Source: Escherichia phage ECp13 | Sequence record: PP274704.1 | Reading direction: 5' to 3' (one strand) | DNA: 64,000 nucleotides | Part shown: one piece after another, positions 53,666-61,037 of the stretch | Layout: each line of letters starts with the position of its first letter | How positions within the stretch are numbered: the first letter of the stretch is position 1 | Position numbers and translations under genes: made by a program | Notes under the pieces: generated by a model | Database searches by the model: none | What the model saw: the letters and a program-made list of their open reading frames with translations, nothing else | What the model was told of the DNA's origin: nothing

Positions 53666-53835
53666 ATAGTTTTGAGTTACAATATGAAGTGTTACGTGAA
53701 CTTGATAATTTAATTGAACTCGCTGTTAATAAAGGTTTTGCCATTGGAATCGGTCAAAAAGATACTGATCATTTAACTATGGAAATATTTAAGCAAAAGC
53801 GAATTATTTTAAAACTCCTGGAAATTAATATATGA
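53662..53835 (+). CDS. small hypothetical protein
   Basis: 57-aa ORF (below track cutoff) with ATGA coupling at both ends. Confidence 0.4.
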   Translation: MNSFELQYEVLRELDNLIELAVNKGFAIGIGQKDTDHLTMEIFKQKRIILKLLEINI

Positions 53836-54017
53836 GTCTGAGTAAAGAACAAAAAGATAAATTGTTTGAGCTTATCCATGAACTTCTAGATGAGCATACA
53901 GAAGCAAACACCTTTTATGATGAATACGGTCCGCTATCTCCCGAACAGCAAGAAGAATTTGCTGATCGGTTTGATAAGAAAGAAAATGAATTAATAGCTT
54001 ATGTGAATACGCTTTAA
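53832..54017 (+). CDS. small acidic helical protein (member of a repeated ~60-aa family)
   Basis: 61-aa ORF MSLSKEQKDKLFELIHELL... Confidence 0.5.
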   Translation: MSLSKEQKDKLFELIHELLDEHTEANTFYDEYGPLSPEQQEEFADRFDKKENELIAYVNTL

Positions 54018-54026
54018 GAAGGTGAT

Positions 54027-54608
54027 ATGGCGAGTTTAATTTTTACTTATGCAGCAATGAATGCTGGAAAATCTGCTTCTCTTTTGACTGCTGCGCATAA
54101 TTATAAAGAACGCGGAATGGGTGTATTAGTTCTTAAGCCTGCTATTGATACTCGCGATTCTGTCTGTGAAGTCGTTTCTCGCATTGGAATTAAACAGGAA
54201 GCGAATATTATTACGGATGATATGGATATTTTTGAGTTCTATAAATGGGCTGAAGCACAAAAAGATATTCATTGCGTATTTGTAGATGAAGCTCAGTTTT
54301 TAAAAACTGAACAGGTGCATCAATTAAGCCGAATTGTTGATACATATAATGTTCCTGTTATGGCTTATGGGCTAAGGACCGATTTCGCTGGAAAATTATT
54401 TGAAGGTTCTAAAGAACTTTTGGCGATTGCAGATAAACTTATTGAACTAAAAGCAGTTTGTCATTGCGGTAAAAAAGCGATTATGACAGCTCGATTAATG
54501 GAAGATGGAACACCAGTTAAAGAAGGCAATCAAATCTGTATTGGTGATGAAATTTATGTTTCTTTGTGTAGAAAACATTGGAATGAATTAACTAAAAAGC
54601 TCGGTTAG
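54027..54608 (+). CDS. tk: thymidine kinase
   Basis: 193-aa ORF with P-loop (AMNAGKS) and C-terminal Cys cluster; T4 Tk length. Confidence 0.92.
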   Translation: MASLIFTYAAMNAGKSASLLTAAHNYKERGMGVLVLKPAIDTRDSVCEVVSRIGIKQEANIITDDMDIFEFYKWAEAQKDIHCVFVDEAQFLKTEQVHQLSRIVDTYNVPVMAYGLRTDFAGKLFEGSKELLAIADKLIELKAVCHCGKKAIMTARLMEDGTPVKEGNQICIGDEIYVSLCRKHWNELTKKLG

Positions 54609-54650
54609 TGCAAAAGTTATAAATAGGTTTATCTAACTAAAGGGGTATAT

Positions 54651-54863
54651 ATGCTACAATTAACTGAAAAGCAACTTCGCAATCTTACTGTTCTTCAATT
54701 AGATGAAATTCGTAGGGAAGTTGGAAATATCATTTCAGCTTTGCGTCGAGAAGTATCACTCAACCAATCTCCGGCAGACTATACTAGATTGCGAAATTTT
54801 GAAAAATACCTTGATAAAGTTAAGGCCGTGCATCGGCATAAAGTAAATACAGGACAAAAATGA
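54651..54863 (+). CDS. rI.-1: small protein, positional equivalent of T4 rI.-1
   Basis: 70-aa ORF between tk and rI. Confidence 0.6.
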
Positions 54864-54875
54864 TAGGAGGCCTTT

Positions 54876-55169
54876 ATGGCCTTAAAAGCAACGGCACTAT
54901 TTGCCATGCTAGGATTAGCGTTTGCTTTATCTCCACCAATTGAAGCGAATGTCGATCCTCATTTTGATAAATTTATGGAATCTGGTATTAGACACGTTTA
55001 TATGCTTTTTGAAAATAAAAGCGTAGAATCATCTGAACAGTTCTATAGTTTTATGCGAACGACTTATAAAAATGACCCGTGTTCTTCCGATTTTGAATGT
55101 ATAGAGCGAGGCGCGGAGATGGCACAATCATACGCTAGAATTATGAACATTAAATTGGAGACTGAATGA
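54876..55169 (+). CDS. rI: lysis inhibition regulator RI
   Basis: 97-aa ORF with N-terminal signal-anchor (MALKATALFAMLGLAFALSPPIEA); T4 RI length. Confidence 0.88.
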   Translation: MALKATALFAMLGLAFALSPPIEANVDPHFDKFMESGIRHVYMLFENKSVESSEQFYSFMRTTYKNDPCSSDFECIERGAEMAQSYARIMNIKLETE

Positions 55170-55552
55170 AATTCAGCGACTTTTCACAAAGTGGAAAACC
55201 TTCAAAGGCAGATGAATACTTAGGTTTATTAATGGCTGCACAAGCTTATTTTCATTCTGCACATTTTGAAACTAAAAGTTATGCTAGACACAAAGCATAC
55301 GATTTTATTTTCTCTGAGTTGCCAGATTTGATTGATAAATTTGGTGAGCAATATTTGGGGTATTCTGGTAGAAAATACACGCCTTCTATTCCAGATGCCA
55401 GTAAACTTCCTACCGACACAATTAAAATGATTGATCGCATACTAGACCAATCTAACAGCATTTATAAAGAAATGCCTCCAGCCATTCAAAGCACGATAGA
55501 TGATATTACTGGGATGTTTTACCAGAGTAAATATCTTCTTTCCCTCGAATAA
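55166..55552 (+). CDS. rI.1: hypothetical protein, positional equivalent of T4 rI.1
   Basis: 128-aa ORF overlapping rI stop. Confidence 0.6.
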
Positions 55553-55556
55553 CATT

Positions 55557-55580
55557 AGTCTCCTTCGGGAGACTTTTTTC
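55557..55580 (+). terminator. intrinsic terminator after rI.1
   Basis: AGTCTCC-ttcg-GGAGACT hairpin followed by TTTTTT. Confidence 0.7.
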
Positions 55581-55589
55581 ATTTTACCG

Positions 55590-55619
55590 GTTTACTTTCC
55601 ATTTGAGCTGTGATACTAT
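55590..55619 (+). promoter_or_regulatory. early sigma70-type promoter
   Basis: GTTTAC (55590-55595), 18 bp, TACTAT (55614-55619). Confidence 0.6.
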
Positions 55620-55647
55620 ACAACCATCGGATAAAGAGGAGAACATC

Positions 55648-55836
55648 ATGAAAATTGAAGCACTCAATCAAGAAGGAAATATCTACGTCATCATTAATGG
55701 TGATTTTTTCGTCAACATGGATGAAGTTACTAGTGAAGAACTTGTAGAACTTCTTAAGAAACGCTATAGTATGTGTGATGAAGCTGCGACTCATATGGCG
55801 TGTGCAATATTTTCTCTTTCATATGTGGTGGAATAA
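55648..55836 (+). CDS. small hypothetical protein
   Basis: 62 aa from ATG 55648 (RBS AAGAGGAG). Confidence 0.5.
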
Positions 55837-56018
55837 TGATTAGTATTGAACAAGCAGATAAAATTAAAGAATTGGTAGCTTTAATTCGCAAAGCAGATGA
55901 GGAACGCATTAACTTTGCCTTATCAGGTATTGAAGAATTTGAAGCTAAAGTTGATAATGCTTTAGAAGCGTTAGATATGTTTCTTGATGAAATTATCGAT
56001 CATAATACGAGAGTTTAA
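55836..56018 (+). CDS. small helical protein (repeated ~60-aa family)
   Basis: 60 aa from ATG 55836 (TAATG overlap), [17 protein letters not shown]... Confidence 0.5.
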   Translation: MISIEQADKIKELVALIRKADEERINFALSGIEEFEAKVDNALEALDMFLDEIIDHNTRV

Positions 56019-56020
56019 GT

Positions 56021-56215
56021 ATGCTAACACGTGAACAGTTTGAAAAAATCATTAAATTAGCACGTGATGTTGAAATAGATTCATACCAATTGGCAGTTGA
56101 GCATTGTGAAGGATACTCATACGATGGTATAGAAGCAGCTAAAAAGGATTTGGATAAATCCAAAGCTAAGTTAGTTCAATATCTTGAAATGATTAGGTGG
56201 AATAATGAAAACTGA
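56021..56215 (+). CDS. small helical protein (repeated ~60-aa family)
   Basis: 64-aa ORF MLTREQFEKIIKLARDV... Confidence 0.5.
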   Translation: MLTREQFEKIIKLARDVEIDSYQLAVEHCEGYSYDGIEAAKKDLDKSKAKLVQYLEMIRWNNEN

Positions 56216-56378
56216 AAAGCAGATGTTTTTAATGAAGCTAATTGAAGAATATGCTAATGCAGTTTCTGACTATGAGTATTCTGCTAGGGAAAGAGGTACA
56301 GCTTTCGCAAAGGAAGAAATGAAAATCATGGTTGATGCTCACACAAAGCTTCAGAATTTTATTGAAAACGTCATTTAA
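56205..56378 (+). CDS. small helical protein (repeated ~60-aa family)
   Basis: 57-aa ORF (below track cutoff), MKTEKQMFLMKLIEEYANAV...; RBS AGGTGG. Confidence 0.45.
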   Translation: MKTEKQMFLMKLIEEYANAVSDYEYSARERGTAFAKEEMKIMVDAHTKLQNFIENVI

Positions 56379-56380
56379 TT

Positions 56381-56410
56381 GTTTACAAGTTGGCAAGGTT
56401 ATGGTATAGT
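56381..56410 (+). promoter_or_regulatory. early sigma70-type promoter
   Basis: GTTTAC (56381-56386), 18 bp, TATAGT (56405-56410). Confidence 0.55.
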
Positions 56411-56542
56411 AATCTTGTCAACTGCCAAGGAGAAGAGAATGAAAGTTTTGTTTGTTGTGTATGTGATGATTCAATATAATTATCCAATGTTTACTTATAA
56501 TCTGGTGAACAACATTATTGATATTATTCAAAGGAGTATGTA

Positions 56543-56728
56543 ATGACAAGTGAGCAGGCTTTTAAATTAAGAGAATTAATTGAGATGTATAGTAAAGCTG
56601 TTCATACATCAACAGTTATTGATGAATCAGCTTTCTCTGGATATGCTAACAAGATTAAATATAAAACTCTTATGGAAGAAGCTAAAGTAAATCTTGATTC
56701 TTATATTGAAACTTTAATTGGTGAATAA
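56543..56728 (+). CDS. small helical protein (repeated ~60-aa family)
   Basis: 61-aa ORF MTSEQAFKLRELIEMYSKAV... Confidence 0.5.
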   Translation: MTSEQAFKLRELIEMYSKAVHTSTVIDESAFSGYANKIKYKTLMEEAKVNLDSYIETLIGE

Positions 56729-56729
56729 T

Positions 56730-56996
56730 GTGAGCTTTCCGAAATTAGAAGTAGGTGATTTAGTCTTAACAAAATTGTGGAATGATGCTCAATCAGTAGA
56801 AATCTGCCAATATCGTGGAGCAACAGGTAATTTGATGTACACGATTTATAATCCAGAAATTTTGTTAGAGTGTCATTTGGAACGCTTTATAAAAGACACT
56901 GATAGTATGCCTTATAGTGTATCGATTGTGCGTAAATCTGATACAAAGGAATACTCTAAAATTTTAGAACAAATTTATGTCAGTAAAAAGGATTAA
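56730..56996 (+). CDS. hypothetical protein (non-ATG start)
   Basis: Track ORF from TTG 56718; GTG at 56730 with GGTGA RBS is the likelier start, about 88 aa. Confidence 0.4.
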   Translation: MSFPKLEVGDLVLTKLWNDAQSVEICQYRGATGNLMYTIYNPEILLECHLERFIKDTDSMPYSVSIVRKSDTKEYSKILEQIYVSKKD

Positions 56997-56997
56997 T

Positions 56998-57531
56998 ATG
57001 AAACGATTAGTATTAGAAGTTAGTCCACTTTTTGGCGAATTGGCTATAGAAAAAGTAAATAATATGTATCGTTTGACGCAAGAAGACGATATGCTATATT
57101 TTACGCCCAGTGAAATCATTCATTTAACCCAAATTGAATATCCTTATACTGATAAAATAGTAAGCATTAATGATGAGCACAAAATTCATTTTTATTCTTC
57201 ATGCCCAGGATTTAATATTAAAAGTGAGTCAATGTGTTTATCAGTTATCCATTGGGATAGTTTTATAGATAAGATTAAATATTTTTATTATTCTAATGAA
57301 AGAAAACATAGTTTAAAATGGTTTAAAAATTGCAATGCTATTATTACTAACGCTTGCAATCAGAATGATGAAACTGTTTTAAATGTGTCAAAATGCTATG
57401 AAGATGGAGATGTCTTAACTATTCGTCAAATTGACGATTTTCGATCGCATATTGTCACATTTACCAAAGACGAAGCTATTGCGCTAAAGACTTATCTTGA
57501 TTCTGTCATTCCAACTATGATTTCAAAGTGA
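56998..57531 (+). CDS. hypothetical protein, paralog A
   Basis: 177 aa from ATG 56998 (RBS AAAAGGA); C-terminus ...KDEAIALKTYLDSVIPTMISK. Confidence 0.5.
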   Translation: MKRLVLEVSPLFGELAIEKVNNMYRLTQEDDMLYFTPSEIIHLTQIEYPYTDKIVSINDEHKIHFYSSCPGFNIKSESMCLSVIHWDSFIDKIKYFYYSNERKHSLKWFKNCNAIITNACNQNDETVLNVSKCYEDGDVLTIRQIDDFRSHIVTFTKDEAIALKTYLDSVIPTMISK

Positions 57532-57537
57532 GGAAAT

Positions 57538-58059
57538 ATGTTTATTTCAAGTGGAAGTGGTTTAATTCGCGTTGAATTTAAAAATGACATCTTCTTTATT
57601 CAAGGAGATGATATTATTAAAATGAGTTATGATGAAATTAAGAAAATTTGTAATGCTCTTGAAAATCATGGAAAGGTGAATGCTGTCATTGATATTGGCG
57701 ATTTATGGGTGACACTTTATGAAGTATCCGAAGGATTTAACATTGAAGATGAAAATAACATTTTAGCTATTGATAAAAGAAGTGATTTGTTTGATGTGTT
57801 AAAAGTTTATGAACAGTCAAACGGTGGAAGAAAAGCTGCATTGATTTATCAAAAACCACATTCATGTGGAACTGCTTCAATCATTTCAGATATTGAAGAT
57901 GAAACTGATACTTATATGTGTGTTTTAAAAGCTGGTGGTGACCGTCATCCGGATTTTATTTCTATTCGTCAAAACAATGGAGAAATTTCATTATCAAAAT
58001 CAGAAGCTGAAGCTATGATTAAGTATTTAACAACTGTTACACCTTCAATGAAAGGATGA
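57538..58059 (+). CDS. hypothetical protein, paralog B
   Basis: 173-aa ORF; C-terminus ...KSEAEAMIKYLTTVTPSMKG parallels the upstream ORF. Confidence 0.5.
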   Translation: MFISSGSGLIRVEFKNDIFFIQGDDIIKMSYDEIKKICNALENHGKVNAVIDIGDLWVTLYEVSEGFNIEDENNILAIDKRSDLFDVLKVYEQSNGGRKAALIYQKPHSCGTASIISDIEDETDTYMCVLKAGGDRHPDFISIRQNNGEISLSKSEAEAMIKYLTTVTPSMKG

Positions 58060-58541
58060 TTATAACTATGGTTATTAATGAAAACTCTTGGCACTTTAAA
58101 ATTTACTCGGCATTTAATAGCACATGGAATCGTCCAAAAACGTTATGTGCTTATTTTTGGAAAACGTTTCTCCCGGTATTAGCGGTTTCAATTGTTGGAT
58201 TTGCAACTTTAACAGGTGCTGCAATCATTGGCCAAGAAATTTTAATTAAATTCTTTGTCTTTAGTAGTCTATGGACATTAGTTCCGGCTTCAATTGGTAT
58301 AGGTATTTTAGCATTATCGGTCATGGTTCTTATTGCTGTCGGGGCGGTAATTGGTCCTTCTTGGTTGTTAGACAAATATAACGACCGAAAGCTCAATAAA
58401 GAAATTGAGCTCATTGTACAAAACGAAGAACGAATCAAAAATGGACTTGAGCCTATTCAACCCAAGAAATCTATTATCGTCGAATTTTTAAAAGCGCGTA
58501 AAGCTAAAGTATGTCCTGTTATTGAATATAAGGCTGAATGA
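58056..58541 (+). CDS. membrane protein
   Basis: 161-aa ORF with two or three hydrophobic helices and a charged C-terminal tail. Confidence 0.5.
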   Translation: MIITMVINENSWHFKIYSAFNSTWNRPKTLCAYFWKTFLPVLAVSIVGFATLTGAAIIGQEILIKFFVFSSLWTLVPASIGIGILALSVMVLIAVGAVIGPSWLLDKYNDRKLNKEIELIVQNEERIKNGLEPIQPKKSIIVEFLKARKAKVCPVIEYKAE

Positions 58542-59551
58542 TGAAAACAGTAATGAAAAGCTATTTTGGTAGTCATCTTTATGGAACTTCTACTCCAGAA
58601 TCTGATGTAGATTTTAAAGAAATCTTTGTTCCTCCTGCTCGCGATATTCTTATCGGAAATGTTAAAGAGCATATGAGTAAAAACACTAACAACACATCAT
58701 CTAAAAACACTAAAGATGATATTGACCATGAACTATACAGTCTTAAATATTTCTTTAAATTAGCTGCAGATGGTGAAACTGTAGCATTGGATATGCTCCA
58801 TACTCCACCTGAACTAGTGGTTAAATCAGATTTGCCTGATGTATGGAAGTTTATTCAAGACAATCGTTCTCGTTTTTATACGACTAACATGAAATCCTAT
58901 TTAGGATATGTCCGCAAGCAAGCTTCTAAATACGGTGTTAAGGGTTCTCGTTTGGCCGCATTGCGTGATGTATTGAAAGTAGTTAATCAAATCCCCGATC
59001 AGTGGGTTGATTATCAAGAAGGAATCCCTGATAGACTTCGTCGTACTAAGGTAGAAGATATCAAACACAGACTCCCTGAAAATGAGTTCTGTGAATGGGT
59101 ATTCCATAATCATGAGAAAACAGGCCCACAAACGTTCTACACTGTGTTGGGTCGTAAATATCAGACAACACTTTCTCTTATTGAACTTAAGCAGTCACTG
59201 AACAAATTAGATGCTGAATACGGCGAACGCGCTCGTAAGGCTGAAGCGAATGAGGGCATTGACTGGAAAGCTCTGAGTCATGCTTGTCGTGGTGGACTCC
59301 AACTATTGGAAATTTACAAAACAGGTGACTTAGTTTATCCACTTCAAGACGCTCCATTTATTCTCGACGTGAAGCTGGGTAAACACCCATTTAAAACTGT
59401 TCAAGAGTTTTTGGAAGATGTGGTCGATCAAGTAGAAGCAGCATCCATTGAAGCTTCTAAGAACGGTATGCAGCAAAAAGTAGACATGGGTTTCTGGGAT
59501 GACTTCCTTGAGAGGGTTTATCTTGAAAACCATCGAAGTTATTATAAATGA
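58538..59551 (+). CDS. nucleotidyltransferase-fold protein (Pol-beta superfamily motif)
   Basis: 337-aa ORF; N-terminal YFGSHLYGTSTPESDVDF matches the G[GS]...D.D minimal NTase motif. Confidence 0.55.
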   Translation: MMKTVMKSYFGSHLYGTSTPESDVDFKEIFVPPARDILIGNVKEHMSKNTNNTSSKNTKDDIDHELYSLKYFFKLAADGETVALDMLHTPPELVVKSDLPDVWKFIQDNRSRFYTTNMKSYLGYVRKQASKYGVKGSRLAALRDVLKVVNQIPDQWVDYQEGIPDRLRRTKVEDIKHRLPENEFCEWVFHNHEKTGPQTFYTVLGRKYQTTLSLIELKQSLNKLDAEYGERARKAEANEGIDWKALSHACRGGLQLLEIYKTGDLVYPLQDAPFILDVKLGKHPFKTVQEFLEDVVDQVEAASIEASKNGMQQKVDMGFWDDFLERVYLENHRSYYK

Positions 59552-59553
59552 TA

Positions 59554-59580
59554 GGGAGCCTTCGGGCTCCCTTTTTATTT
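59554..59580 (+). terminator. intrinsic terminator after the NTase-fold gene
   Basis: GGGAGCC-ttcg-GGCTCCC hairpin followed by TTTTTATTT. Confidence 0.7.
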
Positions 59581-59600
59581 CAAAATTTTTTCACAAAACG

Positions 59601-59630
59601 GTTTACAAGCATAAAGCTTTATGGTACTAT
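59601..59630 (+). promoter_or_regulatory. early sigma70-type promoter (conserved module)
   Basis: GTTTAC (59601-59606), 18 bp, TACTAT (59625-59630); shares TGGTACTATACAACTATCAACT with the 43915 and 61040 promoters. Confidence 0.6.
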
Positions 59631-59664
59631 ACAACTATCAACTGATACGGATTTGGAGAATAAA

Positions 59665-60633
59665 ATGAAAACTGTAACTATCAATAAGGGTATCTACTTC
59701 GGTAAAGAAATCTCTGGAACTTTTGAGCTCTTAGGCGAATGGTTCCCAGATAATGCTCCGGTAGATGCACAAGGAGATGGTAAAGTTTTTGTTGAAATTG
59801 ACGGTAAACGTCGCGGTGTTTGGGTTTACAAATCAGATATTTCATATGATGGTGTAAAGGTTGAAGAAGTTAAAGAATCGTATGAAGATATGAAAACCCG
59901 CATTAATAAAAGATTTAATGTTATGGGAATGATGACGAATGGTATTATTAATGGAAATATTCGTTCATTGATTATCTCTGGTGCAGCAGGTATTGGTAAA
60001 ACGTATTCTTTAGATAAAGCTTTAAATAAAGCAAATGATATTGGATACATTGAATATAAAAGTATTAATGGTAAAATCTCTGGTATTGGTCTTTATGAGC
60101 AGCTTTGGAATAATCGTGAAGAGAATTCTGTCCTTTTGATTGATGATGTGGATGTTTTCTCTGATATGGACATTCTTAATCTTCTAAAAGCCGCTCTGGA
60201 CACCGGAGAGACCCGTAAAGTCTGCTGGAGCACTGCGTCTTCTTACTTAGAAGAAAAAGGCATTGAGCGTGAGTTTGAATTTAAAGGAACGATTGTTTTT
60301 ATCACAAACGTTGACATTGACCGCGAATTAGACCGTGGTACTAAACTTGCTCCACATTTACAAGCATTAGTGTCCCGCTCGGTTTATTTGGATTTGGGTG
60401 TTCACACTAATGAAGAAATTATGGTCAGGGTTGAAGATGTTATTCTTTCAACTGACATGATGCAAAAGCGCGGTCTTTCTGATGAAGAAACTTATAAAGC
60501 ATTATCATGGATGAAAGTTAATGTTAATCGTTTACGCAATGTTTCACTGCGTACTGCTCTTTATCTTGCTGACTTTATTATGACCGACAAAAACGGTTGG
60601 GAAGAAATCGCTGAGGTTACTCTTCTGAAATAA
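59665..60633 (+). CDS. AAA+ family ATPase
   Basis: 322 aa from ATG 59665 (RBS GGAGAA); Walker A GAAGIGKT, Walker B VLLIDDVD, sensor-like FITN. Confidence 0.6.
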   Translation: MKTVTINKGIYFGKEISGTFELLGEWFPDNAPVDAQGDGKVFVEIDGKRRGVWVYKSDISYDGVKVEEVKESYEDMKTRINKRFNVMGMMTNGIINGNIRSLIISGAAGIGKTYSLDKALNKANDIGYIEYKSINGKISGIGLYEQLWNNREENSVLLIDDVDVFSDMDILNLLKAALDTGETRKVCWSTASSYLEEKGIEREFEFKGTIVFITNVDIDRELDRGTKLAPHLQALVSRSVYLDLGVHTNEEIMVRVEDVILSTDMMQKRGLSDEETYKALSWMKVNVNRLRNVSLRTALYLADFIMTDKNGWEEIAEVTLLK

Positions 60634-60734
60634 TTCATAAGAGGACTTCTATGACAAAAAGGCAGTTCAGAAATAGATTATATGGACTGCCATTAAAAAG
60701 ATGACTAGAATTAAACTGGTGAATGGAGGTAGTG

Positions 60735-61037
60735 ATGTTATACTCAAAGGCTCGTGAAATTTACGAAACTAAAATTAAAGAAGCAGTATTTCAGTTCGCA
60801 ACAACGATGCGATGGACAAATGATTGGGAGTATTCAAAAAATCATAAGAAGCCCATGGTGGCAAGAAAGGCTCATATGTTAGTGTTAATAGACCGTGAGC
60901 AGATTAAAGCCCGAGAAGCCCTCCAGAATCACAAAAAGGCTGCCTTTGAATGGTTTATGGATAACACTGCTCCTGAGACCAAGAAAGCAGTGAGCGCCTG
61001 GTTCAGTGGAAAAAATTGTGAAAGAAGTTTCTTTTAG
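60735..61037 (+). CDS. hypothetical protein
   Basis: 100 aa from ATG 60735 (RBS GGAGG at 5 nt). Confidence 0.5.
   Translation: MLYSKAREIYETKIKEAVFQFATTMRWTNDWEYSKNHKKPMVARKAHMLVLIDREQIKAREALQNHKKAAFEWFMDNTAPETKKAVSAWFSGKNCERSFF

Follow-up and report, generated by a model that had tools for sequence, protein, structure and literature searches.

The window analysed here, a 64,000-nucleotide stretch of Escherichia phage ECp13 (PP274704.1), comes from a T4-like coliphage of the genus Tequatrovirus. The 1.6 kb around the two genes under study are 94-97% identical to many Tequatrovirus genomes, and the flanking genes (tk, rI.1, rI, rI.-1, the small mobD.x ORFs, nrdC.11 and nrdC.10) are collinear with T4 at 95-97%. 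The two genes are adjacent on the plus strand: ORF A (56998..57531, 177 aa) runs from an ATG at 56998 to a TGA at 57529-57531, and ORF B (57538..58059, 173 aa) from an ATG at 57538 to a TGA at 58057-58059. ORF A has an alternative in-frame ATG at 56977, which would yield 184 aa, but an AAGGA sits 5 nt before 56998. For ORF B, a GAGG was read directly within the 3' end of ORF A. Upstream, a Phage_tudor (PF24144) ORF (56718..56996, plus strand), whose start is likely the GTG at 56730, ends 1 nt before ORF A. Downstream, a membrane-protein gene of 161 aa (58056..58541, plus strand; PHROG 944) begins with an ATG that overlaps the ORF B stop (ATGA) and is followed by nrdC.11 (58538..59551, plus strand), which encodes a nucleotidyltransferase of the RlaP family and is the final gene of the unit.

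This tight order of tudor, A, B, membrane protein and nrdC.11 lies between two terminator-like hairpins, one at 55557-55574 that opens the transcription unit and a GC hairpin followed by a T run at 59553..59572 (plus strand) that closes it. The spacing of ribosome sites and of stops and starts (AAGGA, GAGG and the ATGA overlap) indicates that the genes are packed as one co-transcribed block. No late-promoter motif TATAAATA was present between 54626 and 64000, the closest being at 54618, upstream of rI.1. An Rfam scan of 54000-61000 returned no matches, and two small antisense ORFs on the minus strand (56964-57119 and 57969-58094) were disregarded as being without support.

Several other features of this neighbourhood were recorded. 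Five ORFs of 57-64 aa on the plus strand (53832-54017, 55836-56018, 56021-56215, 56205-56378 and 56543-56728) match Pfam DUF7438 (E=6e-13 to 3e-19) and form a second, larger paralog family nearby, the group of T4 tk.1 and mobD.2a-mobD.5. The fifth copy (56543-56728) has no T4 counterpart, and some records wrongly call it 'helicase loader'. A 445-bp segment (56555-56999), comprising the end of this DUF7438 ORF and the Phage_tudor ORF, is likewise missing from T4, as it is from RB32 and ECML-134, but AV122, teqhad and a metagenomic relative have it. A 29-nt direct repeat with 76% identity (56691-56719 and 57494-57522) links the C-termini of the fifth DUF7438 ORF (NLDSYIETLI) and ORF A (YLDSVIPTMI), probably by chance. 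Beyond the unit, the mechanically called nrdC.10 ORF (59548-60633, 361 aa) begins in the hairpin at 59553-59572; since T4 nrdC.10 is 325 aa long, the true start is probably an internal ATG (MKTVTINKG...). In addition, orthologs of mobD.1 and mobD.4 carry the label 'molybdopterin-guanine dinucleotide biosynthesis protein MobD' in public records (RefSeq T4 included), and those of nrdC.10 and nrdC.11 the label 'thioredoxin'. No such family was matched here, and both product names look like propagated gene-name collisions.

ORF A is the ortholog of T4 mobD.1 (UniProt P39240, Y05I_BPT4), the namesake of its Pfam family. The two genes are 90.8% identical by blastn over window positions 57000-57556 (557 nt), within flanks that are collinear at 95-97% from tk to mobD.2 on one side and from nrdC.11 onward on the other. 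T4 MobD.1 is classed as early from its transcript and also from its protein, which has been quantified by mass spectrometry (PMC9697503, supplements 4-6). Furthermore, the nrdC.11-mobD.3 fragment was lost from a viable genome-reduced T4 (PMC9825161), so mobD.1 is dispensable in the laboratory. Our literature search found mobD.1 in a review table only, and searches with the accession, locus tag and Pfam identifiers gave no relevant paper.

ORF B is the ortholog of RB32ORF097c and a deeply diverged paralog of mobD.1. It shares 94.2% amino-acid identity with RB32ORF097c and keeps the same seat between mobD.1 and the membrane ORF. GenBank notes in the RB32 record (NC_008515) describe RB32ORF097c as 'similar to mobD.1' and RB32ORF096c as 'replaces mobD'; the paralogy of A and B has thus been on record since the RB32 deposit of 2006. 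ORF B has no counterpart in T4, where the segment corresponding to 57557-58536 (B and the 161-aa membrane gene) is replaced by mobD, a free-standing HNH homing-endonuclease gene seated where the window has these two genes. A review gives the mobD insertion site as nrdC.11/mobD.1 (PMC2988022).

The earlier note on this DNA had described the two ORFs as paralogous neighbours of similar length, and this description holds, with exact coordinates (177 and 173 aa) and an alignment over the full length of both proteins. The pairwise comparison that it proposed as a check is significant: BLASTP aligns residues 8-174 of A with 3-171 of B at 27% identity and 49% positives (E=2e-9), a similarity well beyond chance that covers the whole protein and not the C-termini alone. 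Both proteins carry the same two Pfam domains in N-to-C order, each above its gathering cut-off. T4_y05I_N (PF24449; cut-off 24.9 bits) matches residues 4-100 of A (134.4 bits, E=2e-39) and residues 2-95 of B (116.0 bits, E=1e-33), and T4_y05I_C (PF24448; cut-off 27 bits) matches residues 105-174 of A (75.1 bits, E=6e-21) and residues 102-171 of B (82.5 bits, E=3e-23). Both also match PHROG 1502 (A, E=4e-81; B, E=6e-66). We consider it nearly certain that A and B have the identities given above and are paralogous members of one narrow phage family.

Conservation between the two copies rises towards the C-terminus, from 20% identity (N domain) through 32% (C domain) to 41% (last helix). The C-terminal sequences quoted in the earlier note are present as written in both ORFs and belong to the best-conserved element of this full-length homology. 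The helix, the signature of the family, is TKDEAIALKTYLDSVIPTMISK in ORF A (57460..57528, plus strand; helix 157-173 of the model) and SKSEAEAMIKYLTTVTPSMKG in ORF B (57994..58056, plus strand; helix 154-170), and its motif K-x-E-A-x-x-[LM]-x-x-Y-L-x-x-V-x-P-[ST]-M occurs as KDEAIALKTYLDSVIPTM in A and KSEAEAMIKYLTTVTPSM in B. In an alignment of 29 family members that takes in distant relatives and stand-alone C-domain proteins, four columns are invariant, three of which are the E, Y and L of this helix; the P of its ..P[TS]M ending is near-invariant. The proposed divergence of the N-terminal regions was borne out in part: the N domain is the more diverged, but the N halves are still homologous. 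Since both match T4_y05I_N, the pair does not consist of a shared C-terminus on unrelated N-termini.

Structure prediction, another check proposed for the pair, gave a layout common to A and B. AlphaFold2 models built with family alignments have a mean pLDDT of 77 for ORF A (84-93 in the N domain, 51-77 in the C domain) and 86 for ORF B, and DSSP assigns both the order E-E-E-E-H, E-E-E-E-H, then E-E-E-E-E-H. The predicted fold thus comprises three beta-sheet-plus-helix modules (b4-a, b4-a, b5-a), the last helix being long. Modules 1 and 3 are detectably related by descent: hhalign aligned module 1 with the C domain at 90% probability with a score of 31, compared with 8.0 +/- 1.7 (maximum 12.6) for 60 column shuffles and 8.8 for a reversed control, and the common pattern reads ..h.h.Q.DD.h.h[ST]..E...h... 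The same program gave no signal for internal repeats between modules 1 and 2 or between module 2 and the C domain (probability ~1%).

Comparison with solved structures yielded little. A PDB sequence search with the family profile returned two chance matches only (E ~0.5), and a Foldseek search of the PDB with both models gave nothing below E=1e-3, the best match having E=5e-3 and TM 0.18 and all matches TM <0.36. The top-ranking folds (Ctf4, the Pob3/Rtt106 PH domains, sliding clamps and the Polo-box; TM<0.25) were taken as noise. Against BFVD, nine matches had E<1e-3. Seven of them clearly belong to the family, whole or in fragments, and the remaining two are a Hyperionvirus protein and an entry without a name (11-13% identity, TM 0.26-0.37).

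These results bear on the Pfam family label, 'putative transcription factor', and on the reading of A and B as nucleic-acid-binding regulators comparable to Whirly, PUR-alpha or MRP-type single-strand binders. The repeated beta-beta-beta-beta-alpha topology of such proteins is seen in the N domain of both models (b4-a-b4-a), three modules of which the third also occurs alone recall the three PUR repeats, and Foldseek matched, if weakly, MRP1/MRP2 (E=0.12-0.15) and a phage 'Whirly transcription factor' (E=0.09). However, no fold match fell below E=1e-3, the TM scores of these weak matches were 0.15-0.26 (0.15-0.19 for MRP1/2), no match of this kind was listed within the top 50 for the better model, and the PDB sequence search found no relative. 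Furthermore, all 12 members compared are acidic, with net charges down to -30, an unusual property in proteins that bind DNA or RNA. We regard a regulator of this kind as improbable.

The family itself is narrow. An exhaustive HMM search over 1.84 billion representatives recovered only 28 clusters, which marks it as specific to T4-like phages; several of these clusters are proteins of 67-87 aa with the C domain alone. Within the phage collection, genes at least 80% identical to ORF B were found in 433 records and to ORF A in 413, distant A-type genes (<60% identical) in 313, and T4-type mobD (at least 95% identical) in 47. From these counts, which are per gene and not cross-tabulated per genome, it appears that Tequatrovirus phages commonly carry A plus B, with T4 as the exception. 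Inside this genus, identity among A orthologs and among B orthologs is mostly >90%.

Comparison of gene content across relatives, also suggested in the earlier note, revealed phages with A and B, with A only, with a B-type gene only and with an A/B hybrid. Gaprivervirus VR7 and Mosigvirus p000v have one copy, followed by an ORF of ~150-157 aa in the membrane-gene position and then nrdC.11; ORF A is 45% identical to the lone Mosigvirus copy and 36% to the lone Gaprivervirus copy. In ESh25 (L003 2998-3540) and G4507 (L011 952-1494), a different upstream allele, A', precedes a normal B. A' is 47-48% identical to A and 69% to the Mosigvirus copy, suggesting that genera have exchanged alleles here. 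A metagenomic relative with ~81% nucleotide identity carries the tudor ORF and then a lone B-type gene, 57% identical to B. Shigella phage SP21535 (L004 2980-3519) has one hybrid gene whose N part comes from A and whose C part comes from B. This hybrid was formed by a 531-bp deletion between the paralogs at the 10-nt microhomology GATGAAACTG, found at 57367..57376 in ORF A and at the partner site 57898..57907 in ORF B (both plus strand), and represents a collapse of the pair by unequal recombination; the hybrid protein (P0011) occurs on six contigs. Fragmented copies were also found, in three pieces in T2 and as split N and C fragments in ECO4 and fPS-90.

The conserved order of a y05I-family gene, an ORF of ~150-160 aa and nrdC.11 in Tequatrovirus, Mosigvirus, Gaprivervirus and the metagenomic relative could mean that A and/or B work as one module together with the membrane protein encoded downstream and the nucleotidyltransferase NrdC.11. 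The stop-start overlap of B with the membrane gene and the absence of both genes from T4 point the same way. Gene order in T4-like phages is conserved in general, though, so that synteny is weak evidence here; T4 retains A and nrdC.11 although B and the membrane gene are gone, and the joint loss of the latter two is a single replacement event. Such a module seems rather unlikely, slightly more so than a nucleic-acid-binding role.

The variants also constrain the origin of the pair, which the earlier note had ascribed to tandem duplication. Paralogy stands, but duplication in place followed by divergence does not follow from it: B is only 25-29% identical to all A-type copies compared, across three genera and the metagenomic representatives. 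Taken with the 45% and 36% identities of A to the copies of other genera and with the B-only relative, this places the A/B split as ancient and much older than the genus. To judge from the sequences, the adjacency could reflect an old duplication with later losses, or recombination joining two diverged alleles. In the second case, phages whose alleles of a single locus had long diverged would have recombined, setting the two alleles side by side. The similar distance of B from every A-type copy compared, the relative that keeps only a B-type gene in the same position, the occurrence in the A slot itself of two alleles, that of the window (A) and that of ESh25 and G4507 (A'), each with the same B behind it, and the homeologous recombination inside the locus documented by the SP21535 hybrid are all in line with such an event. 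Old duplication followed by differential loss accounts for the same pattern, however; no phage was found with a B-type gene at another place, and the sequences are short and saturated, so that a tree cannot be rooted from them. We hold recombination of two alleles to be a candidate, at less than even odds.

Both copies are kept by purifying selection. Nei-Gojobori dN/dS values among Tequatrovirus orthologs ranged from 0.02 to 0.39 in A-type pairs and from 0.07 to 0.24 in B pairs, with summed dN over summed dS at 0.14 for ORF B. The broken copies in T2, ECO4 and fPS-90 might suggest that one member of the pair is a decaying, functionless duplicate. Against this, dN/dS is well below 1 for both genes, both reading frames are unbroken in the window and across hundreds of genomes, and both AlphaFold models are well folded, which makes decay of either copy highly improbable.

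What the two proteins do may be approached through their common properties. All 12 members compared have a low pI (4.1-5.8) and a negative net charge (-3 to -30; T4 -3, A -6, B -10, VR7 -30). An NCBIfam search gave no matches, nor did a search of A, B and four neighbours against PADLOC-DB (anti-defence/defence) at E<=1. Acidity, early expression, dispensability, turnover in copy number and alleles, and a seat in the variable host-takeover region together fit small protein-binding accessory factors better than a 'putative transcription factor', although acidity speaks for protein binding only indirectly. We therefore propose, tentatively, that A and B are early accessory factors that act by binding a host or phage protein partner; taken by itself, this mechanism is somewhat less probable than not. 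A and B would be soluble, acidic, non-essential early accessory proteins whose action most likely proceeds via a protein partner (host or phage) and not via nucleic acid. The near-invariant amphipathic C-terminal helix (K-x-E-A-x-x-L-x-x-Y-L-x-x-V-I-P-T-M), being common to both paralogs and to the stand-alone C modules, stands out as the candidate for a shared interaction surface, and it may serve in binding or in dimerisation. The diverged N domains could give each paralog its own specificity, and the retention of two copies may have broadened or split the target range. Broadened or split targets are usual for host-takeover and counter-defence genes in the T4 variable region. For the whole explanation, the identities of A and B together with a protein-binding accessory mechanism, we estimate a probability of roughly 0.55.

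A more specific form of action can be imagined, in which A and B pair via their C-terminal modules into a strongly acidic hetero-dimer, with a fold that has no solved relative, which would act early in infection as a decoy or DNA mimic aimed at a nuclease or defence system of the host. PUR repeat III is a pairing (dimer) module. If the acidic decoy dimer were real, the allele turnover in the A slot and the changes in copy number would reflect an arms race; we consider it quite unlikely, more so than the other functional readings discussed above.

The pair as such is common and already annotated, with curated families in Pfam and PHROG and hundreds of deposited T-even genomes. Its value lies in offering a clean example of how the variable early region of T4 evolves, by ancient paralogs, allele swapping, microhomology collapse and homing-endonuclease replacement. 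It also points to an expressed, conserved family of early proteins without a solved structural relative.

Among known systems, T4 MobD.1 is the closest to ORF A, with 86% amino-acid and 91% nucleotide identity and an equal position; it shares the two-domain architecture with ORF B, which is only 27-28% identical to it. The three-gene arrangement RB32ORF098c / RB32ORF097c / RB32ORF096c (NC_008515) equals that of the window (mobD.1, B and the membrane ORF), although the Phage_tudor ORF and the fifth DUF7438 ORF found ahead of ORF A in the window are missing from RB32. The stand-alone T4_y05I_C proteins (PHROG 7763 and 10804; for example in Yersinia phage fHe-Yen9-01 and Erwinia phage Cronus) have the C module and the signature helix in common with the pair, but at 67-87 aa they are without the N domain, unlike A and B. 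The beta4-alpha binders PUR-alpha, Whirly and MRP resemble A and B in layout only, with no significant match, and A and B differ from them in being strongly acidic.
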